Source: Alphaproteobacteria bacterium (GTDB lineage Bacteria; Pseudomonadota; Alphaproteobacteria; Micavibrionales; UBA2020). Taken from it: DNA of 24,057 nucleotides. Positions within the stretch are counted from its first letter, which is position 1, and each line of letters starts with the position of its first letter. The translations under genes and the position numbers were made by a program. This document shows, one piece after another, positions 1-19,225 of this stretch. Location of the stretch: the NCBI GenBank assembly GCA_023136145.1, contig JAGLRU010000415.1:1-24057 (forward strand). Direction: 5' to 3'. Below the pieces are notes generated by a model that was given only the letters and a program-made list of their open reading frames with translations, searched no databases and was not told where the DNA came from.

Positions 1-165
1 AGTGTGTTTCTCACGCTTTGTTAATAAAACGGGAATCGGTGCTTCTGGAGAAATTCGCTCAATTGAGCCATAAATAAATCTATCCATCATAACATCCCCG
101 ATGCACAGGACACGGGCATTCTGAAGGGTGCTTAAATCTTCAAAAAGTGTATATTTTTCAGACAT
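1..165 (-). CDS. hldE: ADP-heptose synthase HldE/RfaE kinase domain, 5' part (runs off window start; not in ORF track)
   Basis: Hand translation from ATG at 165: [55 protein letters not shown]. This matches the HldE N-terminal signature GDVMLD...RISPEAPVPV. RBS AGAGG lies 5 nt upstream. Confidence 0.9.
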
Positions 166-366
166 TTAAACCTCTTTTTTGGTGAAAAGTCACCATCACT
201 ATTCTTTTATCATGATTACATAAATTGTTGCAATGTAAAATTTATCCTATATTTTTTATAATTTTCATATTTTGTTAACTATTAAGCATAATAATAGTGT
301 TTAAAGTACGTTTCAAAGCAAAACTAAAGTCTAAAAAGACATAACAGTTAAGGAGTGCAGTAAGTT

Positions 367-1341
367 ATGTTTCGAAGCCTTGATTATAGCGGATCAGAAA
401 CAGCTCCGGTATCTGCATCAAGGAGCAGTTTTTTCAGAGCCTTTGCTCAAGCGGTTAGAAGCTGCAAGTTAGGCGATCTTCTGATTGCGAGCGAGCTTAT
501 CAAACCCTTACATCTTCGAACCGCTCTTCTCGAACAGGAAAAAACGAACGAGAAATTAGGAAAAATCCTGATCCGTCAGGGTTCTATTACGACAGTTCAG
601 TTATATCAGAAGCTTACCGAACAATGGTGCATCAAACTTTCCACCGCCGGAATTACTTTGCTTATGCAGACTGTGATTCCGTCTCCTAGCTTAGCGGAGG
701 AATTAAGCGCCAATATAAAGGATGTCACCGCCGTTCAGTTTATGATGGCTTCAACAACAGTTCCGTCTGCTAACAAATATGCTCATACGCCTCGGCAATA
801 CCCTGAACTTTTCGGTACACGGGAAATCCGTTCCGATGACATTAGTGCCTTCAGAAAATGGACAGAGATGATAGGACGCTTTGAGGATCAGATGAAAACG
901 CAGACGGTGTCTTCCCCTCGCGTTATGATGTGGAAGGCGCAAATTCAGGAGTTGAGAGATAAATCCAGACAGGAGCAGATCGAGGGCATCAATGATTTCC
1001 TCAACAAAGTTACCTATATCGAGGACATTGATAACTATAACAAGTCCGACTACTGGGCAACGCCGGGGGAATTCTTAAGCCGTGGAGGAGACTGTGAGGA
1101 TTTTGCGATTGCGAAATATGCCTCCTTACGCGCGCTAGGTTTTTCAACAGATCAGTTGCGTATCGCCGTTGTGCAGGACACATTCAAAAATGTGGCGCAC
1201 GCGATTCTGATTGTGTATTCCGATTCCGGCGACTTCGTGTTGGACAACCAAGACAGGAAGGTAGAGACCGTAGCCTCTGTCAAACGTTATCAGCCCATCT
1301 TCTCTATCAACAGCACAAGCTGGTGGCGACACCAAGCGTGA
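367..1341 (+). CDS. Transglutaminase-like cysteine peptidase (BTLCP/peptidase C93, LapG-like) with N-terminal MshEN-type motif pair
   Basis: The C-terminus has DYWATP, GDCEDFAIAKY (Cys), HAILIV (His) and VLDN (Asp). aa 34-86 form two 24-aa LGxxL(I)xxGxIxxxxLxxxLxxQ-like motifs separated by 5 aa. RBS AAGGAG upstream. Confidence 0.88.
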   Translation: MFRSLDYSGSETAPVSASRSSFFRAFAQAVRSCKLGDLLIASELIKPLHLRTALLEQEKTNEKLGKILIRQGSITTVQLYQKLTEQWCIKLSTAGITLLMQTVIPSPSLAEELSANIKDVTAVQFMMASTTVPSANKYAHTPRQYPELFGTREIRSDDISAFRKWTEMIGRFEDQMKTQTVSSPRVMMWKAQIQELRDKSRQEQIEGINDFLNKVTYIEDIDNYNKSDYWATPGEFLSRGGDCEDFAIAKYASLRALGFSTDQLRIAVVQDTFKNVAHAILIVYSDSGDFVLDNQDRKVETVASVKRYQPIFSINSTSWWRHQA

Positions 1342-1462: not shown

Positions 1463-2887
1463 CTATTCCACCCATGCCACGCGGAGAATATTGGTTGATC
1501 CGGGTGTCCCGAATGGAACACCGGCTGTAATGACGAGACGCTGGCCTTTTTGCGCAATGTTATGCTCCAACGAGATGCGGCAAGCTTTTTTGACCATATC
1601 GCTGAAACTCTCGACATCCTTGGTATGTACAGAATGCACGCCATAGGAAAGCTGTAGTCTCCGCGCCACAATCATGTTTTCTGTTAGACATAGGATAGGA
1701 ACCGAGGGACGTTCCCGCGCTGTGCGAAGTGTCGTCGAGCCTGATGTCGTGTAATTAACGATGGCAGCAGCCGACAGCGTCATGGCTACCCAGTAGGCCG
1801 CTGATGTGATTGCTTCCGGTGAGGTCTCTCCGGGATCGGGATGTTCCGCATCCATGATCTTGCGATAAATATGGTCTTTCTCCACATCTGCGGCGATCTT
1901 GTCCATGATTTCTACAGCTTCGATTGGATATTCTCCGGCGGCGGTTTCCGCTGAGAGCATCACGGCATCAGTGCCATCGTAAATTGCCGTTGCTACATCA
2001 GAGGCTTCTGCTCGTGTTGGTCTTGGGCTGGAAGTCATTGATTCCAGCATTTGTGTCGCGATAATTACCGGTTTGCCTGCCTTCCGGCAAACCCGCACAA
2101 TACGTTTCTGGACGCTTGGTACACTCTCTGCCGGAATTTCAACTCCCAGATCACCACGTGCCACCATCACTGCATCCGAAATATCGATGATTTCATCAAG
2201 GCTTTCGAGGGCGGAAGGCTTTTCTATTTTTACGATAATCTTTGCGCGGATACCGATAAGCGCACGAGCTTCCTCGACATCTTCAGGACGCTGCACAAAA
2301 GAAAGAGCGATCCAGTCCGCGCCCATATCGATCGCAGCTTCGAGGTCGATGCGGTCTTTATCAGTTAGGGACGATACTTTCAGAATCACGTTTGGCAGAT
2401 TGACTCCCTTGCGGTTCATCAGCTTTTTTCCAGCGATAACTTCAGTTTCGATGAAATCAGAGCCTTTCTTAATAACGCGCAAATGCACATTTCCGTCATC
2501 CAATAGAATGTCGGAGCCTTCTTGCAGGGCTTCCAGAATTTCAGGATGCGGCAGGTAGACTCGTCGTTCGTCTCCCGGCTCTGGATTTGAATCGAGAATG
2601 ATCCGCATCCCTTTTTTAATAGAAATTTCGCCGTTTTTAAAAGTGCCGAGGCGCAGTTTTGGCCCTTGCATATCTGCGAACACGCCGATAGGCCTGTTCC
2701 TCTCCTTTTCAATCTCTCGAATGATGGAGATGCGCTTCCGGTGATCCTCATGTGTGCCATGGCTGAAGTTCAGACGAAAGACATCCACGCCGGACTTAAA
2801 CAGATTGCCGATTATCTCCCGTGTTGAAGAAGCAGGTCCCAGTGTTGCGATGATTTTTGTCTTACGATAACGCTTCAATGAGGGCAT
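1463..2887 (-). CDS. pyk: Pyruvate kinase
   Basis: Motifs TKIIATLGPAS, RLNFSHG, DMQGPKLR, KIEKP, MVARGDLGVE, ATQMLESM, DAVMLSAETA and GSTN. RBS AAGGAG. Confidence 0.98.
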   Translation of the reverse strand: MPSLKRYRKTKIIATLGPASSTREIIGNLFKSGVDVFRLNFSHGTHEDHRKRISIIREIEKERNRPIGVFADMQGPKLRLGTFKNGEISIKKGMRIILDSNPEPGDERRVYLPHPEILEALQEGSDILLDDGNVHLRVIKKGSDFIETEVIAGKKLMNRKGVNLPNVILKVSSLTDKDRIDLEAAIDMGADWIALSFVQRPEDVEEARALIGIRAKIIVKIEKPSALESLDEIIDISDAVMVARGDLGVEIPAESVPSVQKRIVRVCRKAGKPVIIATQMLESMTSSPRPTRAEASDVATAIYDGTDAVMLSAETAAGEYPIEAVEIMDKIAADVEKDHIYRKIMDAEHPDPGETSPEAITSAAYWVAMTLSAAAIVNYTTSGSTTLRTARERPSVPILCLTENMIVARRLQLSYGVHSVHTKDVESFSDMVKKACRISLEHNIAQKGQRLVITAGVPFGTPGSTNILRVAWVE

Positions 2888-2927
2888 TTTTCATCTCCTT
2901 CATTTATATAACCATGTCTAAAGGTAG

Positions 2928-3335
2928 CTAATCTTTTTTTATCACATCTTTTTGCACTTTTTCTTGACGTATAAGTTTTTCGATTTGTTCGGCTTTATCA
3001 AAGCTATGATCAAGTTTAAATGTAACTTTCGGGGTGTAGCGGAGATTCATGCGGCTCGCAAGAGCACTCCTGAAAAATCCGGCGGCGCGGTTAAGGGCAT
3101 CAAGAAATGTGTCTGCATTTTTGCCTCCAAGGGGCATAACGAAAGCGGTGGCGTGCTTTAAGTCGCGACCTATTTCAACGGAGGTAACAGTAATCACGTT
3201 CGCATTCAGAAGTTCTGGATCATAAAAATGCTCACGTTGCAAGATTTCCGCGAGAAGATGGCGGACTTGTTCGGCAACGCGCAATTGTCGCTGTCCCGGA
3301 GGTGCTCGACCGTCATGGGGTATGGGTTTTTTCAT
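2928..3335 (-). CDS. rbfA: 30S ribosome-binding factor A
   Basis: Motifs RQLRVAEQVR, VTSVEI..DLKHAT.FV and LRYTPKVTFKLD; directly after infB. ATG at 3335 preferred over the TTG at 3350. Confidence 0.95.
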   Translation of the reverse strand: MKKPIPHDGRAPPGQRQLRVAEQVRHLLAEILQREHFYDPELLNANVITVTSVEIGRDLKHATAFVMPLGGKNADTFLDALNRAAGFFRSALASRMNLRYTPKVTFKLDHSFDKAEQIEKLIRQEKVQKDVIKKD

Positions 3336-3346
3336 GTTATATGCTG

Positions 3347-5884
3347 TCAATCCAGTTGACGTTCTGTAATTTCCATTTCGAAGGCTTCGATCATGTCACC
3401 TTCCTTGATGTCGTCATAATTGTCGAAAGCCATCCCACATTCGTATCCCTTTTGCACATCACGGACTTCGTCTTTGAAGCGTTTTAACGTTTTGAGAGTT
3501 CCCTCGTGGATGACTACATTATCGCGCAATAGTCGTACTTTGGAACCGCGCTTGACAACCCCCTCCGTGACGAAACATCCGGCGATCTTGCCGAGCTTGC
3601 TGACATTAAAAACTTTGCGAATTTCAGCATATCCGATAAATTTCTCCTTGATGGACGGAGAGAGCAGCCCGCTGAGAAGGGATTTTACTTCGTCGATGAC
3701 TTCATAAATGATGGAGTAATAACTTATCTGTACGCCATCCCGCTTTGCGAGATCACGCGCCTGAGGATTGGCGCGGACGTTAAATCCGATAACCAGTGCT
3801 TTGGATGCGTTCGCCAAAGTAACATCGGACTCCGTAATGGCACCAACGCCTGAATGCAGTATCTGCACGCGGACTTCCTTGTTGTCCTCCGTGAGCTTGT
3901 TGATAGCACTGACGATGGCTTCCACCGAACCATGTACGTCTCCCTTGATTACGACTGGCAGGTCTTTGGCTACGCCCGCCTGAATTTCACTAATCATCTG
4001 GTCAAGTGGACGAGCACACTTAGTCTTGATGACCAGAAGGTCACGCTTTTTTCTGGCTCGAAATTCAGCGATTCCTCTAGCTTTTGCTTCGTCCTCCACA
4101 ACTGCGAAATCATCTCCGGCTTCCGGTATTCCGTTTATTCCAAGAATTTCGATAGGTTGCCCCGGGAGTGCTTCTTTCACTTGCTGCCCTCGATCATTAA
4201 TGAGAGCACGAACGCGACCAGTTTCAGAGCCGACTACGAATATATCCCCTTGCTTGAGTGTTCCATTCTGGACAAGGATGGTAGCGATGGAGCCTTTACC
4301 TTGCTCCATGCGAGATTCGATTACGGAGCCAATGGCGGTACGATCCGGATTGGCACGGAGGTTTAGAATTTCTGATTGTAGCAGGATTGCCTCTTCCAGA
4401 TTATCAAGACCTTTTTTTGTTTTGGCCGAGACTTCGATACATTGGCAGTCGCCGCCCATCTGCTCAACTATGACTTCATGTTGCAAAAGCTCTTGACGAA
4501 CCTTGTCAGTATTTGCGCCCGACAGATCGCATTTGTTGATGGCGATTATCATCGGTTTTTTCGCAGCTTTGGTGTGACTGATGGCCTCGATTGTTTGCGG
4601 CATTACGCTATCGTCGGCAGCCACAACAAGAATGACAATATCAGTTACGTCGGCACCACGAGCTCGCATATCAGTAAAAGCAGAGTGACCTGGAGTGTCA
4701 ATAAAAGTAATTTGCTTGCCTGTTTTCGTCTGTATCTGATAAGCACCAATGTGCTGAGTGATGCCTCCAGATTCACGGGCAACGACGTTTGTTAGACGGA
4801 TAGCATCCAAGAGAGATGTCTTACCGTGATCAACGTGCCCCATAATCGTCACAACGGGCGGACGGCTCTTCAGGTTTTCCTCTTTGTCCTCGACACTATG
4901 TATACCAAGTTCAATATCGGATTCCATGACGCGCTTCACTGTGTGCCCGAATTCATGAACTATCAGTTCAGCAGTGTCGGCATCGATGGTCTGGTTGCCA
5001 GTAGCCATAATATCCAGAGCCATAAGCTTTTTCACGACATCCCCCACACGCTCGGTCATGCGGTTGGCAAGCTCCTGTACGGTAATCACTTCAGGAATTA
5101 CAACTTCGCGGAACTGCTTTACTTTTTCTTGCGTGAAAGCTGCCTGTTTTGCTCGCACTCGAGCGCGAGCGCGACGCTGTGCAGCCATACTTGGTGTGCG
5201 ACTCTCGCGTTCGCCGAAGCCATTATTAATGACCTGATGGACAGTTAGTTTGCTATTGCTTCTACGACGTGCTTCGTTTGTTCGGGAGCCAGGACGTTTT
5301 TTGAGAGCTCCATCTGCATCGTTTCCTGTATCCGCAATAGTGCGACCATAGAAATCAACTTTGCGACCTGTTGGCTTTTTGTCGGCTGGAGGAGCGATGA
5401 CGGTTGGGTTTGCTGCCGGTATATTTCGTGGAGAGGATTCTTCCTGACGGCGACGTTCTGTCTCGGTAGCTTCATTGATTTGCTTGAGCTTCGCAATTTC
5501 CTGTTCACGGAGACTTTCTGCGGAAGCGGTCTCATCAGCAGAGCCTTCCTCTTCTTCATGGCCTTTGACCACAATTTTAGTTTGGTAGAGGGGGGTCGAT
5601 GTCTCCTTTGAGGTTTGCTGAGCCTGTTGCAGAGCGCGAATGCGGGCTTCGCGTTCGGCTTCTGTTAGGTGCAAGTCATCGAATGCTTCTTCCGCACGAG
5701 ATTTCGCCGCCATTTTGGCATGGACACCACGCTTTTTCCTGATCTCCACGGCAATTGGCCTTGAAAATCTTCCCGTTGCTACGTTATTGCGTCCAGCACC
5801 TGCTCCCAGAGGAGACTTTAGGCTGAGCGTGCCTTTCCCGGACAGGCTCAGTTTCTTGCTGTCGTTATCGGTTTTGTCTGTCAT
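3347..5884 (-). CDS. infB: Translation initiation factor IF-2
   Basis: G-domain motifs [35 protein letters not shown] and NKCD; C-terminal GYECG. Confidence 0.99.
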
Positions 5885-5910
5885 CTGAGTGTTTTTACCT
5901 TCCGTGCTTC

Positions 5911-7449
5911 TTAACCGTTGCTAACGATTGTATTGTTGTCATCTATCTTGTCGTCATCTTGAAACCAGCTTGCTCGCGCAGCCATAATAATCTCGTTGGC
6001 TTGTGATTCGCTCAGTTTGTCATCGCCGACTAGCTCACGTAACTCATCACTGGCTAGGTCGCCTAGATCATCCATTTTCTTGATGTTTTTCTCTCCGAGG
6101 GAGAGGATCATATCTTGAGTCAGCCCCTTGACATCAGCCAACTCCTTGCTGATGCCAATTTCGGCGGCGCGTTTTTCAAAAGCTACTTTTTTGATTTTAA
6201 GAAAGCTGGCTGCACGATTTTTCAATTCCGTTGCAACGTCAATGTCGAAGCCCTCGATCCTGCCGAGTTCCTCGTTGGATGTTTCAACGATGTCTTCGAT
6301 GGAAGAAAAACCTTCGACGACCAGAAGGTGCGCAATTACTTCGTCCACATCCATTGCTTCGATGAAGAGTGCAGAACATGTTTTAAGTTCTGTCTGGCGG
6401 CGTTCGGATTCTTCGGCTTCGGTCATGATGTCGATGTTCCAGCCGGAAAGCTGTGTTGCCAGACGTACGTTCTGACCACGCCTTCCAATGGCAAGGCTTA
6501 ACTGGTCGTCTGGAACTACTACATCCAAACGGCGACTATCCTCATCCATTACAACTTTTGTAACTTCAGCTGGAGCAAGTGCGTTAACGACGAATGTCGC
6601 TGTATCCTGCGTCCACGGAATGATGTCGATTTTTTCGCCTTGTAGTTCGCCAACGACTGCCTGAACACGACTACCGCGCATTCCAACGCAGGCACCAACA
6701 GGATCGATTGATGAATCGTTCGAAATGACAGCAATTTTAGCACGGCTGCCCGGATCGCGAGCAACGGCCTTGATCTCAATAATGCCGTCATAAATTTCCG
6801 GCACTTCCTGCCTAAACAATTTCGCTAGAAAATCTGCATGTGTGCGGGACAGAAACACTTGCGGACCACGAGCTTCTTGGCGTACATCGTAGATATATGC
6901 GCGAACGCGTTCTCCGTTTTTGAAATGTTCGCGTGGCAAAGCATCGTTGCGACGGAGGAAAGCTTCGCCACGACCTAGATCGACGGTAACATTGCCGTAC
7001 TCAACACGCTTCACGGTGCCGCTGACGATCTCGCCGATGCGATCCTTGTATTCCTCGAACTGACGTTCTCGTTCAGCATCACGTACCTTTTGGAAGATGA
7101 CCTGTTTCGCGGTTTGTGCGGCGATGCGTCCGAAATCTAGCGGCGGAAGTTTGTCAATGATATGTTCACCGAGCTGAACGTCTGATTTTATTTTCTTTGC
7201 CTGCTTTAAAAGTATTTGCTGCGTTTCCAGCTCTGGCGTTTCGGGATTGAATTCCTCAACTACATTACGATATCGGAAAAGCGAGATTTCGCCCGTTGAG
7301 CGGTCGATCTGTGCGCGAATATCGTGGTCGTAGCCGTATTTGGAACACCCTGCCTTTTGTATGGCTTCTTCCATCGCAGAAACCACTATTTCGCGGTCGA
7401 TGTTTTTTTCACGTGCTACTGCGTCTGCAACTTGAATTAATTCCTGCAT
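5911..7449 (-). CDS. nusA: Transcription termination/antitermination factor NusA (with C-terminal acidic repeats)
   Basis: Motifs [39 protein letters not shown] and [14 protein letters not shown]. Confidence 0.99.
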
Positions 7450-7467
7450 TATATTTTTCCCATTTTC

Positions 7468-7965
7468 CTAATTAACCTTTTTCTGTGTTTGTTTCAGCAA
7501 ATCTTCTGTTAGTACCAGTTTCGCTTTCTCGATAAAAGAGAAGGGAATTTCCTTGTCGCCTTCTTCGGTAGAAATCATGATGCAATCATCCATTACGCCT
7601 TTCAGAAGCCCATTAAAACGCTTGCAATCCCCTATGGCGGGAGAGATCTCGATGCGTGCTTCCATGCCAGCGTAACGCTCAAAATCCTTTAAGCGAGTTA
7701 GCGGACGGTCAAGTCCCGGAGAGCCTACTTCGAGATAATAGGAAGAATTCTCAAGGACATTCTCAACGTCCAACACCGTAGAAATAGCCTGACTGAGCTT
7801 TCCACATTCATCGACCGTGATGGTGCCATCAGCGCGTTCCGCCATAATTTGTAAGGTAGGTCTTCCGCTGCCAGTCATTAAAATGCGCACGATCTCAAAC
7901 CCCATCGATTCAACGACGGGAGTGAGGATATGTTCTATTTTTTTAATCAGTGGCGTTTTGTTCAT
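7468..7965 (-). CDS. rimP: Ribosome maturation factor RimP
   Basis: Motifs LQIMAER, TVDEC..LS..IS.VLD and LEVGSPGLDRPL; first gene of the nusA-infB operon. Start placed at ATG 7965 because the longer ORF start overlaps the leader hairpin. Confidence 0.95.
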   Translation of the reverse strand: MNKTPLIKKIEHILTPVVESMGFEIVRILMTGSGRPTLQIMAERADGTITVDECGKLSQAISTVLDVENVLENSSYYLEVGSPGLDRPLTRLKDFERYAGMEARIEISPAIGDCKRFNGLLKGVMDDCIMISTEEGDKEIPFSFIEKAKLVLTEDLLKQTQKKVN

Positions 7966-7991
7966 TCCTGTACTCTTAATTTTCCCAAGAG

Positions 7992-8027
7992 AAAGGGCGG
8001 ACTCTAATTTATTAGAGTCCACCCTTT
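7992..8027 (-). promoter_or_regulatory. rimP leader hairpin / probable attenuator
   Basis: On the minus strand AAAGGGTGGACTCTAAT-AA-ATTAGAGTCCGCCCTTT forms a long stem (one G-U pair) followed by CTCTT. It lies between the promoter and the rimP start. Confidence 0.7.
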
Positions 8028-8053
8028 ATTGTCTATATCTGGGATTTGATGAA

Positions 8054-8083
8054 TTTATAGCATAAAAACTGATAATTCTGCAA
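8054..8083 (-). promoter_or_regulatory. sigma70-type promoter of the rimP operon
   Basis: TTGCAG-N18-TATAAA with an extended -10 TGn. Confidence 0.55.
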
Positions 8084-8127
8084 GAATTTTTTTGTTTTTA
8101 TTTACTTTCAAGGACTGTTCGTAAAAA

Positions 8128-8143
8128 TTAAGTCAATTTTAAC
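8128..8143 (+). promoter_or_regulatory. CtrA-binding box
   Basis: TTAA-GTCAATT-TTAAC is an exact TTAA-N7-TTAAC match, ending 44 nt before the DUF2336 ATG. Confidence 0.7.
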
Positions 8144-8187
8144 ATAACTTTTATACAATTGAATAAATCTTGATGAGGGATTTATAA

Positions 8188-9306
8188 ATGGGTGATAAAA
8201 ATAACAATCTGGAAGAACAGGCACTTGAGGTTAATATTTTGGACTCAAAACAGTTATTACAATACGCGCAAGATACAACGGAAATGGGCAAATTCCGGCT
8301 GGCGAATGCGGTTGCACAGTTTTTCGATGAAAAGAAGCTAAGCAAAGCGGAACAGGCTCTAACCAGTGAGATTATGCTCAACCTGATTCGTCAGGCTGAG
8401 ATTGATCTGCGGGAAGCACTTGCTGAAAGACTGTCAGTCCTTAGCAACGTCCCATCAGATGTTATTATATATCTCGCCAATGACACCATATCAGTTGCCA
8501 GACCTATTTTGCAGCACAGTCCTGTTTTAAGCGATGTTGACTTGATTTATATTATCGCATCGAAAGACGAAGATTATTGGGATTCTATCGCTAAACGCGA
8601 AAAGATTGGCTCCGTTGTCACGGATCGGTTGATCGACACCGGGAATCCAAAAACCATTCTCAGTCTGATCGATAACCAGCGTGTTGTACTGCAAAAAAAC
8701 TGCCTCAAAAAGCTGATTAAGGTTTCCTTGAAATCTGAAGAGTTGCAGGCATCGCTGCTACGCCGCCCGGAAATTGATGGTGATCTGGCAGTTGGTCTTT
8801 ACACATGTGCTTCACAGTACCTACGGAGAGAAATCACCGAACGGTTCAATCTGCCTATAGCGGTAATCGAAACCGCTCTGGAGTCTCTTGTCGAAGAACT
8901 AAGTCAGGAAGTAAAAGGATCGCGGAAGGTTACTCCTGAAATGATAGCGTTGGCCGGACGCTTCATGGAAAGGGACGAAATTTCTCCGGATCTTATGATT
9001 AAAACCCTCCGTCGTAGCCAGATTTCTTTCTTTATTGCTTTATTCGCCACGAAGATCAACTTTACGCCGGAAGCAGTCATGAAGCTGCTTCAGAAAGAGG
9101 AAGGAAAGTCTTTTGCGTTGGCCTGCCGGTCGATAGGGATGATGAAATCGGAGTTCGCCTCAATATTTCTTCTTAGTCGGGGGATCAGCACTGGCGACAG
9201 GATAGTCGATCAGCGTGCATTGGCTATGGCACTCAAATATTATGACACAATCAAGGAATTTGAAATCAAGCGCATTATGAAGTCTTTAGCGAAAAATCAG
9301 GAATGA
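8188..9306 (+). CDS. DUF2336 family protein
   Basis: All-helical 372-aa protein with R.ALAERL, LAND.I.VA.PIL..SP.L.D.DL, AKR..I...VTD.LI and LL.RP.I, typical of alphaproteobacterial DUF2336. Confidence 0.85.
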   Translation: MGDKNNNLEEQALEVNILDSKQLLQYAQDTTEMGKFRLANAVAQFFDEKKLSKAEQALTSEIMLNLIRQAEIDLREALAERLSVLSNVPSDVIIYLANDTISVARPILQHSPVLSDVDLIYIIASKDEDYWDSIAKREKIGSVVTDRLIDTGNPKTILSLIDNQRVVLQKNCLKKLIKVSLKSEELQASLLRRPEIDGDLAVGLYTCASQYLRREITERFNLPIAVIETALESLVEELSQEVKGSRKVTPEMIALAGRFMERDEISPDLMIKTLRRSQISFFIALFATKINFTPEAVMKLLQKEEGKSFALACRSIGMMKSEFASIFLLSRGISTGDRIVDQRALAMALKYYDTIKEFEIKRIMKSLAKNQE

Positions 9307-9387
9307 TTTAGTACTCTGTTAGACGTTATGGTCAGCCATAATTGGTTCGGAAATATAATCATTTGAAAAAATAACTATACCTTTTCC

Positions 9388-9519
9388 ATCACGCCGGACT
9401 TGTTCCGGCATCCATAAAGGCTGTCCAGCCGTCACTATGACCCTATTTTCATCATAAGACGCGCTTTTAGACCCCCGAACGAGTCGGGGGTGACAATGAG
9501 GGGGCGGCATGGCGTAAAG
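9388..9519. repeat. CGTC/RPE-like REP palindrome with nested 34-bp element and shared flank
   Basis: Left arm GCCGGA-CTTGT-TCCGGC (9393-9409) and right arm ACCCCCGA-ACGAG-TCGGGGGTGAC (9471-9494). The 9491-9519 flank resembles the flanks of the 21.9 kb and 23.5 kb repeats. Confidence 0.8.
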
Positions 9520-9588
9520 AAAATTCCTATCAATAAATTCAGGAACAACTATAAATTGCGCTTTTAAATTAGGGTTCAGAAATAATTG

Positions 9589-9617
9589 TTGACGCGACAT
9601 CATAAGTTATGTATAAA
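9589..9617 (+). promoter_or_regulatory. sigma70-type promoter upstream of the small protein and xerD
   Basis: TTGACG-N17-TATAAA. Confidence 0.65.
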
Positions 9618-9738
9618 CAAGAACTCAGGACATACTCAATTTTAGATAGTGAAAAGAAATTATGTCGGTTTTCTTTTCCTGCCTCTGGAATTACTCTAAA
9701 CTTCAGAGTGACATTTTGAAGCAAGGGAAATAAAAATT

Positions 9739-9891
9739 ATGATATCGAAACTACTTTCTTCACTTATTTTACTGGCATGTATAGCGTCTGCGGCAGGCTT
9801 TGTAGTTCTAGCGGTATGGGATGTACCCGTAGCGCAAAATATGGTTGAGAAACCAGTCGATGCCTCTACGCTTATGAAAAAGGAGTCCTGA
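9739..9891 (+). CDS. Small 50-aa single-pass membrane protein (not in ORF track)
   Basis: Hand translation: MISKLLSSLILLACIASAAGFVVLAVWDVPVAQNMVEKPVDASTLMKKES. RBS AAGGGA upstream; one hydrophobic helix followed by WDVP...VEKPV. Confidence 0.8.
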   Translation: MISKLLSSLILLACIASAAGFVVLAVWDVPVAQNMVEKPVDASTLMKKES

Positions 9892-10229
9892 TATTTGCTT
9901 CTAATCTATTTCGAAAGGTTTCCTTTATATCGTCTGCGCCGAATCAGTTTATTCCGAGTCGTTTTTGATAAATTGGATAATTTTGATAAATATACTTGAA
10001 AATCATTTTTTTTAGGTGTTTTTAAGTTAAGAGCGAACAAGGCAAGGATGTATATGAGAAAAACAATTGATTTCATGTGGTTAAGAAAGTTATTAAATTA
10101 TAAACTCAAAGACATGAAATATAAAAAATCGATTTTCACATATTAATCTTGCTTTTTTCGGTAGAATGCGATTTTATGACATCGTATGGTGATAAGGAAC
10201 TAGGGTTCAACAATAGGGAGAAAAAATTC

Positions 10230-11216
10230 ATGGCTCGTCCAGGTCGTCCAAGAATGCCAAAAGCACCGCTTCCAGGTACGGTTGAGGCATTTCTAGATAT
10301 GCTCATCGCTGAACGCGGTGCAGCTCTTAATACACGTCACGCTTATGAGCGTGATCTTGCAGATGTTTGCGCTTTCTTGAAAAAGCAAAGCAAGGACATC
10401 AACTCTGCTTCAACAGGTGATCTAAAAGCTTATCTCGCTGAGCTTGGAGAACGCGTGAATGTGAAAAGCAAGGGTGGTGGAAAAACGGCTGTGCGTACTA
10501 TTGCACGTCGTATTTCAGCGTTACGCCAGTTTTTCGGCTTTCTCGTTTCCGAAGGCACTCGTTCGGATGATCCGACATCTACCATCGAAAGTCCGAAGCA
10601 AACTCGCACTTTGCCAAAAATCTTGAGTGAAGACGAAGTCACTGTCCTGATCACGACAGCTCAAAAACAGGGTGGGCCTGAGAGCGTCCGTCTTGTGTCT
10701 CTGCTTGAGATACTCTATGCAACGGGTCTACGCGTTTCTGAACTGGTTGGCTTGCCTCTGGCATCCATCGGTCCAGAAGGTCGCTACCTGACGGTTGAAG
10801 GCAAAGGTGGTCGTGAACGCATGGCTCCTCTGTCCGAACCAGCTCAGAGAGCAATGAAAGCGTATATGGATGTCAGGACGAGATTCTTGATACCTGATCG
10901 TGTTGATGCGCAAAGCAAATGGTTGTTCCCGTCTCGTACGTCCGAGTCTGGGCATTTGACCCGTCAGCGATTCGCTCAACTTCTGAAAGAGCTGTCGCGC
11001 AATGCTGGGCTTGATCCCGGACGTGTCAGTCCGCACGTTCTGCGTCACGCTTTCGCAACCCACCTTTTGAGACATGGTGCGGATTTACGTTCCGTGCAAA
11101 AAATGCTTGGTCATGCTGATATTGCCACAACTCAGATATACACACAGGTTGTAGGCGATCAGATGAAAAGTGCCGTTGAAACCAAACATCCACTCTCTGT
11201 AATAAATGAGTCCTGA
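10230..11216 (+). CDS. xerD: Site-specific tyrosine recombinase XerD
   Basis: Motifs FLDML.AERG...NT..AY..DL, LYATGLRVSEL, GKGGRER, SPHVLRHAFATHLL and LGHADIATTQIYT. RBS AGGGAG before ATG 10230. Confidence 0.93.
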   Translation: MARPGRPRMPKAPLPGTVEAFLDMLIAERGAALNTRHAYERDLADVCAFLKKQSKDINSASTGDLKAYLAELGERVNVKSKGGGKTAVRTIARRISALRQFFGFLVSEGTRSDDPTSTIESPKQTRTLPKILSEDEVTVLITTAQKQGGPESVRLVSLLEILYATGLRVSELVGLPLASIGPEGRYLTVEGKGGRERMAPLSEPAQRAMKAYMDVRTRFLIPDRVDAQSKWLFPSRTSESGHLTRQRFAQLLKELSRNAGLDPGRVSPHVLRHAFATHLLRHGADLRSVQKMLGHADIATTQIYTQVVGDQMKSAVETKHPLSVINES

Positions 11217-11241
11217 TACGGTAACGAATAAACTTGAATAT

Positions 11242-11275
11242 AAAAGGGAGCCTTTGAAAAAAGGCTCCCTTTTTT
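11242..11275. terminator. Bidirectional intrinsic terminator between convergent xerD and tadC
   Basis: AAAAGGGAGCCTT-TGAAAA-AAGGCTCCCTTTTTT. Confidence 0.85.
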
Positions 11276-11311
11276 CTGTAAGCCACCTCTAAAAACCTAC
11301 TTTTACAACAA

Positions 11312-11335
11312 GATTCCGGCGAAAACTGGAATGAC
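11312..11335. repeat. Solo REP arm
   Basis: GATTCCGG-CGAAAA-CTGGAATGAC ends in the same GG(A/G)ATGAC terminus as the full elements. Confidence 0.6.
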
Positions 11336-11370
11336 GATATTAGAAAATTTTGGTGTTTTTAGATGTCACC

Positions 11371-12330
11371 TTAATGCTTAAAGCCTATAAATGCGGGGCC
11401 TAGGATAATTACAAACAAAGGGGGCAGGAAGAACAGGATCATCGGCACCGTCAACTTTGGAGGCAGAGATGCAGCCTTCTGCTCCGCCGCTGCCATACGC
11501 AACTCGCGCGTTTCATCAGCCAGAACCCGTATAGCTTTAGATATCGATGTTCCGTACTGCTCCGCCTGTAGCATGGCCGACGCAAAAGAACGCGCAGGCC
11601 CACTGCCAACGCGATTAGCAAACCCTTGAAACGCTCCCTTACGATCATTCAGCAACCCAAGTTCAGCACTCAAAATTCCCAATTCTTCCGCAAGTGTTTC
11701 GGAATGTTCCGAAATTGTCGTAGCAATCCTGTTAATGGCTGCCTCGATACCAATCCCGCCCTGCACGCAGATCAGCATCATATCGAGAGCATCAGGAAAA
11801 GAGAGAGAGATTTCCATCTGACGCTTATCAGCCATATTCTTGACCAAAATACGCGGCAAGAAAAATCCAATAACGACAAGCCCCAAAAGAATCAAGAGCA
11901 CGATGGAATGAGAAATCTCCCTATGAGAAAGTCCCATAAACAACGCCCCAAGTCCCACGAACACCAACGGCAGCACAATTCTCGATCCGAGATAAATCAA
12001 CGGTGCCTTCGAACCGCGTATCCCCGCTTGCAATAACTGATTGCGTGCAGTGATACTAGCCTTTCCCGCCAGAGACTGAAGCTTATAAAGCGACACTATA
12101 GCTTGAGCCGCCGTCATTTCCTTTTGCTTAACAACATCCTGTTTTTCAGCCTGTTCGCGTGCCAGCTCAAACAACGTGCGACGTTTCTTTTCGATGACAT
12201 CCTTGTAGCGTTCCTTCTTTTCCGAACGCGCAAGCAACGGCAAGGCAAACGCCACAAAGGAAACGGCTGCGGCAAGCGCACTTAAAATCACGATATAAAC
12301 GCCGGAATCCATATTTGTAAGGGTATCCAT
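11371..12330 (-). CDS. tadC: Tad pilus inner-membrane platform protein TadC
   Basis: Motifs FPDALDMMLICVQGG, Q.E.YGT.I..A.RV.A.E.R and AEQKAASLPPKLTVPMILFFLP. Confidence 0.93.
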   Translation of the reverse strand: MDTLTNMDSGVYIVILSALAAAVSFVAFALPLLARSEKKERYKDVIEKKRRTLFELAREQAEKQDVVKQKEMTAAQAIVSLYKLQSLAGKASITARNQLLQAGIRGSKAPLIYLGSRIVLPLVFVGLGALFMGLSHREISHSIVLLILLGLVVIGFFLPRILVKNMADKRQMEISLSFPDALDMMLICVQGGIGIEAAINRIATTISEHSETLAEELGILSAELGLLNDRKGAFQGFANRVGSGPARSFASAMLQAEQYGTSISKAIRVLADETRELRMAAAEQKAASLPPKLTVPMILFFLPPLFVIILGPAFIGFKH

Positions 12331-12334
12331 ACCT

Positions 12335-13315
12335 TCAAATCCTGAAATTTATCATTTGTCGCATCATCAGACATCCCAGAAACATCCAGAAAATCGCTCC
12401 GCCGAGAAAAACTTGCCCTTTCGGAACTATAAAAAGAATCCCGACATACTCAGGACGCGCCGCATAAAGCCCAAGAGTCACCAGAACCGGAAGCGCGCCA
12501 ATAATCGCTGCTGAAGACTTTGCCTCAGAAGACAGTGCCTGAACCTTTCTCCTAAGCCGAAACCTTGCCCGTATAACTGCGGAAAGATTGTACAATACCT
12601 CGCTAAGACTGCTCCCCGTCTCGCTCTGTATCTGTAATGCCGTCGCAAACATATGCACCTCTGGCAGAGGCATCCGCCTTGCAGTCATTTGCGCTGCCTC
12701 TCCCAACGGAATACCTACTTTTTGGTTTTCGTAGATACGTAGCATTTCATCCTTGAGGGGACCTTTATACTCGCGCGAAGTCATTGCTATCGCCTCCGAC
12801 ATCGGCATTCCAGCCTGCAACAACCGCGCCATTGCATCCAGCGCATCGGGGAATTCCTTTAGAAATTTCTTCTGCCTGCGCTTTATTTTCCACCCGATAA
12901 AAAGCTTCGGAAGTCCAAGAAAAGCAGTGAAAATCATAAAAATCTTGGCCGTCGGTGCCCAACTTGTCAATAAGAGCAGTCCACCGACAAACACTGCAAA
13001 TATAGCCGAATTAAGCCAGAAACGCGGTACGGACGTTTCAAATCCCGCCTGCTGTAGCAATTGAGAAAGAGACGTTTTATCTTTTTTCTTCCCCTGAGTT
13101 TCGTCACTGACTCCCTTCAGCTTTTTAGCAATGTCAGCGCGTTGCTTTGCAGCCGCTTTTTCAGCACTCCCGTCCTGAGAGCTTCCAGCTTTAGCGCGAC
13201 AAATCACGGAGCGATACCTTTCCAGTCGAGCCTGTCTCTTGCCTATGTAAACGCTGATAACGGCGGAAATAGAGAGAAAAACGATAATAACTCCGATGGT
13301 GATTGGCCAACTCAT
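12335..13315 (-). CDS. tadB: Tad pilus inner-membrane platform protein TadB
   Basis: Motifs FPDALD..ARLLQAG.P, IQ.ETG..LSEVL.NL..VIR.R and LSSEAKSSA.II..LP. Start placed at ATG 13315, right after the cpaF stop. Confidence 0.93.
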   Translation of the reverse strand: MSWPITIGVIIVFLSISAVISVYIGKRQARLERYRSVICRAKAGSSQDGSAEKAAAKQRADIAKKLKGVSDETQGKKKDKTSLSQLLQQAGFETSVPRFWLNSAIFAVFVGGLLLLTSWAPTAKIFMIFTAFLGLPKLFIGWKIKRRQKKFLKEFPDALDAMARLLQAGMPMSEAIAMTSREYKGPLKDEMLRIYENQKVGIPLGEAAQMTARRMPLPEVHMFATALQIQSETGSSLSEVLYNLSAVIRARFRLRRKVQALSSEAKSSAAIIGALPVLVTLGLYAARPEYVGILFIVPKGQVFLGGAIFWMFLGCLMMRQMINFRI

Positions 13316-13316
13316 T

Positions 13317-14885
13317 CTAGGTATATGCCTCCGACATTGCATCCAACAATTTATTCTCAAGCCCGTACTGGCGTGCGCGTTCAAAAAGGATTGGACGCAA
13401 GCCAGTGGATTTCTGACGACCTATGATGTGGCCATGTTCATCTTCGCCCTCGTATTCAAACCGAAAAAGATCCTGCATCGTGACAACCTCGCCTTCCATG
13501 CCGGTGATCTCGGTGACATGCGTAACCTTACGCGATCCGTCGCGCAGACGCTGCACCTGAATAATTACATTGACGGCAGAAGCTATCTGCTCACGCACTG
13601 CGGCGGTAGGAAGATTCAGTCCACCCATTGCAATCATGTTCTCAAGACGAGTCAGGGCTTCACGTGGGTTGTTAGAGTGGACGGTTCCCATTGATCCATC
13701 GTGCCCGGTATTCATCGCTTGCAACAAATCAAAAGCCTCCGGCCCCCGCACCTCACCAACGATAATTCGATCAGGTCGCATCCGAAGACAGTTCTTAATA
13801 AGATCGCGCATTTTAACTTCGCCAACTCCCTCAAGATTTGGCGGGCGTGTTTCAAGACGAACGACGTGCGGTTGTTGCAATTGAAGCTCACAAGCATCCT
13901 CGCAAGTGACAATACGCTCGCCAGAATCCATGTAGAAAGTAAGGCAGTTGAGCATTGTCGTCTTTCCCGAACCAGTACCGCCGGAGATAACAACATTAGC
14001 GCGACATGCACCGATAATCTTAATCATCTCCGCGCAAGCTGGAGTCATAGCATTGAATTCCATAAGCTTTTCAAGCGTTAGCTTTTCCTTGGCAAACTTA
14101 CGAATCGTCATAGTACAGCCGTCAACGGCGAGCGGTGGGATAATAACGTTGACACGCGATCCGTCCGGCAGTCGCGCATCGCATATAGGGCTTGATTCAT
14201 CCACCCTGCGACCAATCACACCAACAACGCGCTGACAGATGGTAAGCAAATGATGATTATCACGAAATTCAATGGTGGCGCGCTGAATCTTTCCGTTAGT
14301 CTCAATATAAACCGTTTTCGGGCCATTAATCATGATGTCGGCGATGCCTTCTTGCGCCAATAACTCTTCTAATGGACCGAAACCGAGCATATCATCCGCC
14401 GATTCCTTGGCAACCTGCGCCAGTTCAGCAGGAGTCACGTCCAGACCGCGAAACTGACCAATTTCCTGCACTGCAGAAAGTATCTCCGCGCGCGCTTCAT
14501 CAGCACCCATGCGAGACAACGATTTCAGATCAATCCCATCACGGAGATCCGTCCATATCCTCTTACGCGCCCGCTCCAGACGCGGGTTAGCCGCCACAGC
14601 AGCAGGCGGCGGCGGAGGAGGAGGTTTTGGTGATGTTAGTTTTGACGATGCAGATTTTTGCGATGCTGGTTTCGACGTTGCTGGTTTCGGCGAAGACTCG
14701 GCAGTCTTGGAATCCGCAACTGCCGATTTTGGAGGAGTCGCTTCCGCCGTAATCGATACTGAAGACTGATCAATCGCAGGCTTTTCAGGAGAAGACGCGA
14801 CCGACTTTTTTGGCGGTACTGACGACGCTGGCTTAGCCGCTGGTGATCCGCCTTGTGGTTTGTCTGTACGCTTGCCGAACATCAT
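13317..14885 (-). CDS. cpaF: Tad pilus assembly ATPase CpaF/TadA
   Basis: MFGKR N-terminus, Walker A GGTGSGKTT, EDACEL, RMRPDRIIVGEVRG and AMNTGHDGSMGTVH. Confidence 0.97.
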   Translation of the reverse strand: MMFGKRTDKPQGGSPAAKPASSVPPKKSVASSPEKPAIDQSSVSITAEATPPKSAVADSKTAESSPKPATSKPASQKSASSKLTSPKPPPPPPPAAVAANPRLERARKRIWTDLRDGIDLKSLSRMGADEARAEILSAVQEIGQFRGLDVTPAELAQVAKESADDMLGFGPLEELLAQEGIADIMINGPKTVYIETNGKIQRATIEFRDNHHLLTICQRVVGVIGRRVDESSPICDARLPDGSRVNVIIPPLAVDGCTMTIRKFAKEKLTLEKLMEFNAMTPACAEMIKIIGACRANVVISGGTGSGKTTMLNCLTFYMDSGERIVTCEDACELQLQQPHVVRLETRPPNLEGVGEVKMRDLIKNCLRMRPDRIIVGEVRGPEAFDLLQAMNTGHDGSMGTVHSNNPREALTRLENMIAMGGLNLPTAAVREQIASAVNVIIQVQRLRDGSRKVTHVTEITGMEGEVVTMQDLFRFEYEGEDEHGHIIGRQKSTGLRPILFERARQYGLENKLLDAMSEAYT

Positions 14886-14895
14886 TTAACTCCTG

Positions 14896-16134
14896 TTACT
14901 TACCAAGAGTTTTCTTGATAAAACTCATCAGAGTGTCTTTTTCACCTTTGTCCACGATGCCTTTGCATTCAATCGCAGAAGCTTTCTCTGCAATCTTCAT
15001 AAGAGGCTCCATGACGCATCCTGCATTCTTGTTCTGACCGACAGACTTGCCTGTAGCTTCACTGATGGCGAAAATCTTCGGCATATATGGAAGCGTTGCC
15101 GAAGGCTCTATCCCCAAACCAAGCGCATCTTTGATCTCACGAGCAGGAACTTCCTCAGAGGAAGTCATGCCCCGCATATTCACTACCAAATCGGTTTCTT
15201 TCAAATGCGCTTTCAACGTTTTTATCTCATTCAACAGCGTCCTCGCATTTCTGAGCGCAGACAGCGTGGGCGTTGTCACCATAACGATTCTAGCCGCACG
15301 TTCCATCAGCCTTTTCTGCACAGGCCGTGTGGCGTGGGAAAGATCAACTACAACCACTGGAAATTTCAGCATTACGCGGCTCACAAGCGTCTCGATATCG
15401 TCTGGATCGGAAGGATCCATCAAGATCGGCTCTCCGCCACAGACAAGCGCGAAAAGATACTCCGACACGGATTGATAGATGCGATTCATATCGTCATCCG
15501 TTCCCGCTCCACCAAGACGAACGGCCTCTATCAACGTCGTGGAAGGTTCAAGGCCATGAGCGATCCCGATGCTACCAACGCTACCAGCTACATCCATCAG
15601 CATGGTCTTCTGCTTCAAAGCTTCCGCGATGTTCCAAGCCAGAATTTGCGCCACAGATGTCGCACCAACGCCACCTTTACTGCCCATCACTGCAACAAGG
15701 CGACTGCCGGAAAGACCCCTTTTATCGATCAGCGTCCTAGCAATCACTTTAGCCATATCTTCTTCGGAAACAGGACGCACCAAATAATCTCTAACCCCCA
15801 TCCCGACAAGACTGCGATACAGATGAACATCGTTGCTCGGCCCGATAATTACCGCATCAGTACCCTCCGCACACACACTTGCAAGTCCGCCAAGCTGCTC
15901 GATAAAAGCCTCGCCGATGTCGTTAGTTTCGATGACAACCAGCTCTGGAGCAGCCGTCTCCCCGTAATGGTTGATCGCGGCATCAATCCCCGCACGCTCT
16001 ATCTTCATGCCAACCCGCGCAAACCGCCAGTCTTCCGTAAGCTTCTGCGCCAGAGCAGCAGTGCTCTCGTCAAGCAAATAGAAATCCACATGTGAAGGAG
16101 GTAACAATATGGAGGTTATATCTTCTCCACCCAT
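14896..16134 (-). CDS. cpaE: Pilus localisation protein CpaE/TadZ (receiver-like plus MinD/ParA-like domain)
   Basis: Motifs IGPSNDVHLYR.L...GV.DYL..P and deviant Walker A KGGVGAT; TAATG overlap with cpaD. Confidence 0.92.
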   Translation of the reverse strand: MGGEDITSILLPPSHVDFYLLDESTAALAQKLTEDWRFARVGMKIERAGIDAAINHYGETAAPELVVIETNDIGEAFIEQLGGLASVCAEGTDAVIIGPSNDVHLYRSLVGMGVRDYLVRPVSEEDMAKVIARTLIDKRGLSGSRLVAVMGSKGGVGATSVAQILAWNIAEALKQKTMLMDVAGSVGSIGIAHGLEPSTTLIEAVRLGGAGTDDDMNRIYQSVSEYLFALVCGGEPILMDPSDPDDIETLVSRVMLKFPVVVVDLSHATRPVQKRLMERAARIVMVTTPTLSALRNARTLLNEIKTLKAHLKETDLVVNMRGMTSSEEVPAREIKDALGLGIEPSATLPYMPKIFAISEATGKSVGQNKNAGCVMEPLMKIAEKASAIECKGIVDKGEKDTLMSFIKKTLGK

Positions 16135-16790
16135 TACTGAACACCAACCGAACTGGCTTGAAACCCCTGCATCGGCTTATTGGGTATTCCAGCCTTATAT
16201 TTTACAACGAAAGCACCAGTACGACTTGAATCATTGTCCTGCGCACCCGACTTGCCCATCAGATCGGATGGATCGGCGATCATCTGACTCAACGACATCT
16301 TCGTTTCACATCCGAACTTGTACTGCTCTATCGCTTCCATATTCTCAGCACCCTGATATCCTGTAATACGACCGCAACCATCAGGAGGCAAAGCCACTAA
16401 TGCCTGATAAGCCACCACTACCTTGTTGAGATACAGCTCATTCGCGACTGGAACCTTAACTACATGAATGTCTGAAACACCACGCTTACTAAGTGCTTTC
16501 TTATACGCAGCTCCATGTTTTGTAGCTATGCGTGAGCTATACACATCTCCAGAAAGCCATGGAACCGTCAGAGTGACAGCCCCTTTTCCGTTCCGCTTAA
16601 TATGATCGGCCAACACATCAACACGCGCCTGATCAACATGAGAGGAATCCAGCATTTCCGTGACTATCTGCTCTTTAAGTCTAACTTTCCCAGTCTGAAC
16701 CTGCGAAGGCAAAGATGCGTCACAGGCTGACAGGACGACTGCAACACTAAATATCAGCACGAGAGAAACCAGTCTATATGCTTGTTGCAT
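16134..16790 (-). CDS. cpaD: Pilus assembly lipoprotein CpaD
   Basis: Signal peptide with lipobox LSAC and C-terminal FGC.T...L..MIADPSDL. RBS AGGAG before ATG 16790. Confidence 0.85.
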   Translation of the reverse strand: MQQAYRLVSLVLIFSVAVVLSACDASLPSQVQTGKVRLKEQIVTEMLDSSHVDQARVDVLADHIKRNGKGAVTLTVPWLSGDVYSSRIATKHGAAYKKALSKRGVSDIHVVKVPVANELYLNKVVVAYQALVALPPDGCGRITGYQGAENMEAIEQYKFGCETKMSLSQMIADPSDLMGKSGAQDNDSSRTGAFVVKYKAGIPNKPMQGFQASSVGVQ

Positions 16791-16818
16791 GGTATAAGCT
16801 CCTTCTGTCCCTTTAGTC

Positions 16819-18243: not shown

Positions 18244-18258
18244 AGTATCACCCCTTTC

Positions 18259-19143: not shown

Positions 19144-19225
19144 GAAAATTCCCCAAACAAGCAACCCGACCCGTTCTTATACTGGCATAGAAATTTGATT
19201 TTGTAATAAAAAAGATTGAATGTTT

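Follow-up and report, generated by a model that had tools for sequence, protein, structure and literature searches.

In this work, we describe a gene encoding a protein of 324 residues, in which a predicted sensor domain for cyclic diguanylate (c-di-GMP), of the MshEN_N type, is followed in the same chain by a segment resembling a signal peptide and by a LapG-like protease domain of the BTLCP family, the transglutaminase-like cysteine proteases of bacteria. The gene lies in a stretch of 24,057 nucleotides, hereafter called the window, derived from a cold-seep metagenome and belonging to a 2.1 Mb metagenome-assembled genome (MAG) of an alphaproteobacterium. Both domains, and the control of BTLCPs by c-di-GMP, are already known; it is for their fusion in one chain that no published description was found. 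Sequence and a structural model suggest that this chain may link cytoplasmic c-di-GMP to the export or release of a periplasmic LapG-type cysteine protease, a reading which we favour, though tentatively. The gene and its main parts are the following:

367..1341, + strand: whole gene, coding for the 324-residue MshEN_N / signal-peptide-like / BTLCP protein
466..624, + strand: predicted MshEN_N c-di-GMP-binding domain, residues 34-86, two 24-residue motifs with a 5-residue spacer
625..696, + strand: signal-peptide-like segment, residues 87-110
697..801, + strand: acidic linker of variable length, residues 111-145
802..1338, + strand: BTLCP / Peptidase_C93 (LapG-like) protease domain, residues about 146-324

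The open reading frame, its coordinates and its peptide proved to be as given in a first-pass annotation, made from the letters of the window, which had proposed that sensor and protease are joined in one chain and had raised the possibility of a translation start downstream of the sensor motif. A word-index search retrieved 1989 homologues of similar length, aligned over 94-100% of it; in the best 120 of them query coverage is 85% or more, and in nearly all it is 93-100%. The motif is conserved in these homologues, in agreement with both a fused chain and a translated N-terminal part.

The C-terminal domain matches PF06035 with an E-value of 3.6e-23 (82.6 bits, against a gathering threshold of 27) and is modelled with a predicted local distance difference test score (pLDDT) of about 90-98. 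Foldseek aligns it to the Legionella LapG structure 4FGO (E 7e-11), and sequence searches match it to LapG structures (4U65_E, 7e-24 by phmmer; 4FGO, 5e-22), with the GDCED stretch, the histidine and the aspartate all in register. The residues concerned are encoded at:

1090..1101, + strand: Asp242-Cys243-Glu244-Asp245, catalytic cysteine with LapG-type calcium-binding acidic residues, aligned to GDCEDY/F of P. fluorescens and L. pneumophila LapG
1198..1200, + strand: codon of His278, catalytic histidine, aligned to the histidine of AHMVL in LapG
1243..1245, + strand: codon of Asp293, catalytic aspartate, aligned to the aspartate of LD(S) in LapG

Cys243, His278 and Asp293, like Asp242 and Asp245, do not vary among 36 relatives, while Glu244 is conserved in at least 90%; the intact Cys-His-Asp triad read from the translation is thus confirmed. 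The earlier label "LapG-like" holds for the fold, the triad and the calcium motif, and fails at the level of the LapG equivalog, since NCBIfam NF045674 gives only 110.6 bits against a cut-off of 320. On sequence criteria the protein is a BTLCP, yet not a LapG equivalog.

The N-terminal domain is recognized by NCBIfam NF053729, a hidden Markov model (HMM) of 53 positions for the MshE-related c-di-GMP motif, which aligns end to end (model positions 1-53 of 53) with residues 34-86, at 48.4 bits against a cut-off of 38 and an E-value of 5.8e-13. This upholds the 24-5-24 spacing proposed previously, with motif 1 at residues 34-57, motif 2 at residues 63-86 and five residues between them. The model also matches all of the 36 diverse members sampled (E ≤ 0.001, best 8.7e-20), and the same region of the window protein weakly matches NfrB, a glycosyltransferase activated by c-di-GMP, in its C-terminal MshEN part. 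When all 2.1 Mb of the genome were searched with NF053729 in six frames, this site and one T2SSE-type ATPase were the only matches, and therefore chance is no explanation; BLASTP of the fused domain against that ATPase (contig C332), the other MshEN protein of the genome, gave nothing significant, and a search of the ESM Atlas with residues 20-112 gave no matches. The profile searches suggested by the first-pass annotation thus found both Peptidase_C93 and NF053729, whereas Pfam PF05157 (MshEN/T2SSE_N) did not match the protein at E ≤ 10. That PF05157 misses the short MshEN_N form explains why architecture surveys based on Pfam would not list such fusions.

Comparison with solved structures points the same way. 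Residues 23-110 match, by sequence, the GSPII-B domain of Thermus PilF, which binds c-di-GMP (E 6e-7 to 9e-9; 6e-7 for 8PDK), and V. cholerae MshE (5HTL, E 7e-4). An AlphaFold2 model built on the 36 relatives, with a mean pLDDT of 78 and values above 90 over residues 40-80, features helices at residues 22-31, 35-41, 47-60, 64-71 and 76-103; Foldseek superposes 53 residues of this predicted structure on the ligand-bound 5HTL and 8PDK within 0.5-0.9 Å over 53-55 columns, at 34-47% identity. PilF GSPII-B is the closest solved relative, with 45-47% identity over the domain. The ligand-contact positions of the two motifs (Leu2, Gly3, Leu17, Leu21 and Gln24 of each; roles as in PMC5013675) are all present, as L35, G36, L50, L54, Q57, L64, G65, L79, L83 and Q86. 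In an alignment of 121 relatives, identical to each other at about 50% overall, L79 is kept in 109 and each of the others in 116-121. The alpha/beta subdomain MshEN_C has no counterpart, the hydrophobic segment beginning one residue past motif 2, and a further conserved element precedes motif 1:

427..465, + strand: conserved basic helix, residues 21-33 (Ser-Phe-Phe-Arg, Arg/Lys31), with S21, F22 and R24 kept in 79-109 of 121 relatives and a modelled helix at 22-31

MshE likewise carries basic residues ahead of motif 1 (PMC12943098). From sequence and model together, the family appears likely to bind c-di-GMP, with somewhat less certainty in the case of the allele found in the window.

Between the two domains lies the signal-peptide-like segment. 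Gln86, the end of motif 2, is followed by the invariant Trp87, Cys88 and Lys90 and by an Ala-rich hydrophobic core, then by Pro105 and by Ser108-Leu-Ala110, for which the family consensus is Ala-Arg-Ala; acidic residues are found beyond Ala110. Proline at position -6 (Pro105) is kept in 117 of the 121 relatives, alanine at -3 (position 108) in 107 and alanine at -1 (Ala110) in 120. The net charge is +1.8 ahead of the core and -1.3 past it, while the highest Kyte-Doolittle mean over 19 residues reaches no more than 1.17, under the level usual for a stable anchor. Judged by its residues, the segment is like a Sec signal peptide in its n-h-c build and its -3/-1 site, but is internal, starting at residue 87. 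The linker which follows, modelled with a pLDDT below 50 over residues 104-141, ranges from 8 to 90 residues in relatives, with a median of 28.

Unfused orthologues support the signal-peptide reading of the segment, because they carry a plain signal peptide in the corresponding position. Within the order to which the window belongs, the orthologue in two families (f2 and f211; L098-L101) is 241-271 residues long and opens with an ordinary signal peptide of 25-35 residues, in one case ending in Ala-Arg-Ala, as the fusion consensus does. In a genome of the same genus, a syntenic orthologue adjoining hldE (L102, G440:C13:13800-16200, at 558-1283 on the - strand) has a plain 30-residue signal peptide where the fusion has its first 96 residues or so, and no MshEN remnant was found upstream of it. 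Many unfused alphaproteobacterial BTLCPs, moreover, begin aligning at positions 91-97 of the family profile, within the segment. The sensor should therefore lie on the cytoplasmic side and the protease on the periplasmic side, if the sequence signals are read correctly.

This arrangement bears on the one-component c-di-GMP-gated protease imagined in the first-pass annotation: the single chain stands, but with the signal-peptide-like residues 87-110 between the two domains c-di-GMP would be unable to gate the active site directly, and any control would have to operate through the membrane or at the level of export. Sequence and model combine into one architecture: a four-helix MshEN_N, whose last helix runs straight into a basic-hydrophobic-Pro-Ala-x-Ala segment, then a flexible linker and the BTLCP domain. 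In the order of events which we favour, MshEN_N would stay in the cytoplasm and bind c-di-GMP there, while the hydrophobic segment would carry the protease across the inner membrane. Signal peptidase I would probably cut after Ala110, parting sensor from protease, so that c-di-GMP would most likely act before or at that step, choosing between export with release of the protease and its retention at the inner membrane. Once freed, the protease may clip a surface protein. By analogy with the Lap system, high c-di-GMP might be expected to retain the protease and low c-di-GMP to release it. Within the taxonomic order of the window, the fusion would replace a separate LapD or DvhD receptor. The positive-inside charge, the near-invariant Pro at -6 and Ala at -3 and -1, and a hydrophobicity too weak for a stable anchor are what lead to a signal peptide in this scheme.

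Some observations weigh against it. The hydrophobic core, which includes Gln101, is short; its residues W87, C88, K90, G95 and Q101 are conserved above what is usual for signal peptides, which hints at a specific role, for instance in helix packing or as a lasting anchor. Glu43 and Ser73, two departures from the motif consensus, could make this allele bind c-di-GMP worse than the family consensus. When expression data were sought, the sequence was found in four cold-seep DNA runs only, and in no RNA run.

The same core conservation favours the alternative that the segment is a permanent signal anchor, which would make the protein an uncleaved type II protein of the inner membrane, a one-component inside-out receptor-protease; we consider this possible, with a probability below that of export and release. 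In that case c-di-GMP, on binding to MshEN_N in the cytoplasm, would alter oligomerization, helix position or partner binding, and hence the reach or activity of the tethered protease. A precedent exists in D. vulgaris, whose BTLCP DvhG is anchored through a transmembrane helix at its N-terminus together with a linker that is long and disordered (PMC13090378); in the model of the window protein, residues 76-103 form a single uninterrupted helix, and a linker with a median of 28 residues would hold a tethered protease off the outer membrane. However, the Kyte-Doolittle maximum of 1.17, together with an approximate sum of about +7 kcal/mol on the Hessa scale, argues against stable anchoring, as do the near-invariant -6, -3 and -1 residues and the normal cleavable signal peptide of unfused orthologues at the same place. 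Model confidence over residues 97-110, moreover, is under 50-55.

A further alternative, which we regard as unlikely, is that MshEN_N, in this allele at any rate, has ceased to sense c-di-GMP and serves as a cytoplasmic folding or targeting tag, as a docking site for other machinery or as an inert lengthening of the signal peptide. Binding has indeed been lost in some MshEN domains, that of XpsE being an example (PMC5013675), and the window protein is off consensus at two positions. The first is:

493..495, + strand: codon of Glu43, in place of the motif-1 turn glycine (equivalent to Gly18 of V. cholerae MshE)

At this position 91 of the 121 relatives have Gly, 12 Arg and 6 Ser, so that the family retains the turn glycine (position 10 of each motif; G18 and G47 in V. 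cholerae MshE), and Glu is shared by the window protein and its 98%-identical relative; in motif 2 the corresponding Gly72 is present. The second is position 11 of motif 2, where Ser73 replaces a hydrophobic residue. The protein consequently fails the published relaxed pattern, though it passes the HMM, and as a strict tandem this pattern is matched by only 51 of 199 family members. On the other hand, the deviating positions are structural: the turn between helices 1 and 2 requires Gly10, which makes no ligand contact (PMC5013675), so that the caveat raised earlier about Glu at this position names a real, lineage-specific deviation, which does not touch the ligand. The contact residues are near-invariant across the order, all 36 sampled members match NF053729, and the closest solved relative, PilF GSPII-B, is a 6 nM binder. 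A second caveat, that lysine in place of the motif arginines weakens binding, turned out to be unfounded. The tightest known binders have Lys at position 1 of motif 1, namely PilF GSPII-B (about 6 nM), D. geothermalis PilB2 (13.5 nM) and C. thermophilum PilB (53 nM), and the K167R change lowers the affinity of PilF about 25-fold (PMC11731258). At position 1 of motif 2, relatives have Gln, Pro or Arg, and PilF has Leu.

That the annotation is an artefact, the real start lying downstream so as to leave an ordinary secreted BTLCP with a chance likeness to the motif in its 5' leader, is extremely improbable: unfused orthologues do exist, and beyond them the idea is a general possibility only, but the sole in-frame start between Met1 and the end of the hydrophobic core is Met100, inside the core, the motif matches its HMM as reported above, and the first 110 residues show conservation at the protein level throughout the order (40-98% identity), on which ground a downstream start was rejected.

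In the order of the window, which comprises eight families, a match was found in 148 of 151 genomes and in all 115 of high quality, nearly always as a single full-length copy. By contrast, in an even sample of 400 genomes of the class, 178 have a BTLCP domain and only two a full-length match, both from this order and from families where the fusion is usual; a third sampled genome of the order, from family f2, matches from about position 105 on. Homologues, where named, are labelled only "transglutaminase-like cysteine peptidase", and their named contigs are MAGs assigned to Micavibrio, Rhodospirillales, Alphaproteobacteria, Bdellovibrionales or Pseudobdellovibrionaceae, the NCBI taxonomy placing Micavibrio within the last of these. 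Gene order (hldE, the fusion gene, often a DUF4153 gene, pyruvate kinase) is kept at about 50% protein identity. Order-wide presence and synteny at this level of identity lead to the conclusion, based on sequence comparison, that the fusion is a vertically inherited core gene of one predator-like (Micavibrio-like) lineage.

The periplasmic domain of LapD (LapD_MoxY_N) was found neither in the genome of the window nor in any of 101 genomes of the order, while the same search was positive in 48 of 201 genomes across the phylum. Since the fusion is near-universal in the order and the LapD domain was not found there, the fusion stands where LapD would be. The c-di-GMP network of the genome contains seven GGDEF domains, four EAL domains, one PilZ domain and two MshEN sites, a receptor set (one PilZ, two MshEN) which is small beside the turnover enzymes.

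Neither a lapD nor an adhesin gene is present in the window, as had been noted; genes for an adhesin and for a type I secretion system (T1SS) lie elsewhere in the genome, and this RTX/T1SS locus is a candidate substrate locus for the protease. In a genome of the same genus (L096, G445:C8:74000-92000, at 5501-17505), an RTX protein of 1181 residues, featuring a BapA-prefix-like and a FecR/retention-like N-terminus, adjoins a TolC-like protein, an ABC exporter with a C39-like domain and HlyD, as well as a CHASE2-adenylate/guanylate cyclase and an EAL protein with a domain binding cyclic nucleotide monophosphates. The latter architecture is that of Bd1971, a c-di-GMP phosphodiesterase activated by cyclic AMP (cAMP) (PMC6717892), and the locus could represent a circuit from cAMP through c-di-GMP to the adhesin. 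In the genome of the window all parts of the locus are present, split over contigs C43, C408, C22, C420 and C202. The substrate of a Lap-type system is a T1SS adhesin which has an N-terminal retention module, a targeting helix and a [T/A/P]AAG site. The RTX protein is kept as a candidate only, for several reasons. Of the HMM for the LapA retention module just the first half matches it, overlapping the FecR domain, at a sub-threshold 31-46 bits against 50. A di-alanine site is not conserved among orthologues: a helix-ND-AA[A/G] site past the FecR-like domain occurs in some Micavibrio-type orthologues, not in this genus. The protein was not found in genus g309 (0 of 9 genomes) or family f213 (0 of 3), both of which have the fusion, and adjacency to T1SS genes holds in this genus but not in a genome of family f3. 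The sequence DASAAG, at residues 96-101 of the RTX protein of the genome itself, was evaluated as a LapG site and rejected, close relatives reading SP[AV]G there.

The junction of MshEN_N with an export signal is not confined to BTLCPs. A phmmer search with residues 20-112 against 1.84 billion representative sequences gave 704 matches, of which the best 150 were inspected. Only four of these 150 belong to the BTLCP family, while about 50 are unrelated proteins with 2-8 tandem MshEN_N motifs (P0123, P0126, P0127, P0131, P0134 and about 45 others among P0121-P0269). In these, the last motif is followed within 0-8 residues by Lys or Arg, by a hydrophobic run of 13-23 residues and by an AxA-type site or a lipobox (LTGC, LAGC or LASC). 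The domains which come next are of extracytoplasmic type: a papain-like Peptidase_C39_2, fn3 with Big_7, a beta-helix of pectate-lyase-like type and an unassigned domain of about 160 residues. P0134, for instance, combines a lipobox with Peptidase_C39_2. The occurrence of MshEN_N ahead of a lipobox or AxA site in unrelated proteins gives independent support to the segment of the window protein as a real export signal. A lipobox, moreover, implies cleavage by signal peptidase II, which parts the sensor from its cargo, and any control by c-di-GMP must then precede cleavage.

As far as sequence can tell, these proteins suggest that the BTLCP fusion belongs to a design of wider occurrence. MshEN_N ahead of signal peptides might even form a general c-di-GMP-gated signal peptide, deciding on export and maturation after translation, although we hold this as speculative. 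Its cargo would conceivably be a LapG-like protease here and, elsewhere, a C39-like lipoprotein peptidase, an immunoglobulin/fn3 surface protein or a beta-helix enzyme, a proposal to be taken with the same reserve. If true, such a device would add a further, distinct way for c-di-GMP to act, besides the allosteric control of enzymes, the control of transcription and sequestration of the LapD type.

The immediate surroundings of the gene are housekeeping genes. The protease gene is divergent from an hldE-like gene at 1-165 (- strand) and convergent with pyruvate kinase at 1463-2887 (- strand); these and the DUF4153 gene of relatives were considered as a clue to function and set aside as uninformative. 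By translation and the annotation of relatives, 1-165 and 1463-8022 (- strand) encode the hldE-like kinase/adenylyltransferase, and pyruvate kinase followed by rbfA, infB, nusA and rimP-like reading frames. A scan for promoters and terminators performed no better than on shuffled sequences, and ARAGORN found no tRNA genes in the window. A putative ribosome-binding site could be read ahead of the gene:

350..355, + strand: Shine-Dalgarno-like AAGGAG, 11 nucleotides ahead of the ATG at 367

Farther along the window, a DUF2336 protein (8188-9306, + strand) and a tyrosine recombinase with a Phage_integrase and a SAM-like N-terminal domain (10149-11216, + strand) are encoded between the rimP-nusA-infB-rbfA block and a Tad/Flp-type pilus cluster (11371-19759, - strand). 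The cluster contains two T2SSF (TadB/C-like) genes, a T2SSE ATPase, an unassigned reading frame of 411 residues, CpaD, a secretin, RcpC/CpaB and an A24 prepilin peptidase; in its ATPase, Pfam found the T2SSE domain only, and no MshEN domain.

Should the favoured scheme hold, the protein would represent the shortest inside-out pathway known for c-di-GMP, and the question is raised whether a second messenger can gate Sec export or the cleavage of a signal peptide. The gene is a single-copy core gene of Micavibrio-like epibiotic predators, which have many cyclases and few known receptors, and this makes it a good candidate for a switch between attachment to and release from prey. The same junction ahead of other exported domains suggests a wider, undescribed class of c-di-GMP effectors.

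The first-pass annotation had not recognized the architecture as characterized, and in fact no published description was found, either of this fusion or of a class with MshEN_N before a signal peptide. In the literature searched, no paper was found to join MshEN with transglutaminase-like proteins, nor, among the top-ranked papers on MshEN or BTLCPs, MshEN with BTLCPs; papers which mention MshEN together with LapG, or together with signal peptides, treat the two separately. The MshEN partners reported by Wang et al. 2016 are ATPases, glycosyltransferases, REC, HD-GYP, CheA, CheX, cyclases, kinases and Peptidase_M23; Peptidase_C93 is not in their Suppl. Table 4. The nearest entry in that table, the MshEN_N-Peptidase_M23 protein of Acaryochloris (NlpD), likewise has MshEN_N on a peptidase normally acting outside the cytoplasm, but is cyanobacterial and uncharacterized, belongs to another peptidase clan, and no signal peptide was discussed for it.

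The MshE, PilB and PilF ATPases and the NfrB glycosyltransferase share with the fusion the same 53-residue, two-motif, four-helix bundle, at 34-47% identity over the domain. What they regulate, however, lies on the same side of the membrane, being either an ATPase of the cytoplasm or a membrane glycosyltransferase, whereas the fusion has the MshEN_N half only, without MshEN_C, and its output domain lies beyond the signal-peptide-like segment.

To our knowledge, c-di-GMP control of adhesin-clipping BTLCPs always acts through a separate transmembrane receptor, LapD or DvhD. In the DvhD/DvhG system of Desulfovibrio vulgaris (PMC13090378), DvhG resembles the fusion in being a BTLCP which has a membrane segment at its N-terminus and a linker predicted as disordered, and is controlled by c-di-GMP, cleaving T1SS adhesins; its receptor DvhD (PAS/HD-GYP/dCache) is nonetheless a separate protein, and DvhG has no cytoplasmic sensor domain. 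In the LapD/LapG system of P. fluorescens and L. pneumophila, which provides the best structural matches of the window protein (LapG 4FGO and 4U65), a calcium-dependent periplasmic BTLCP, with the same triad and DCED residues as predicted here, is made available according to cytoplasmic c-di-GMP. The Lap sensor is a separate inner-membrane protein, with degenerate GGDEF-EAL domains and a LapD/MoxY periplasmic domain, which captures soluble LapG; in the fusion, by contrast, the predicted sensor is an MshEN_N domain placed on the protease chain itself.

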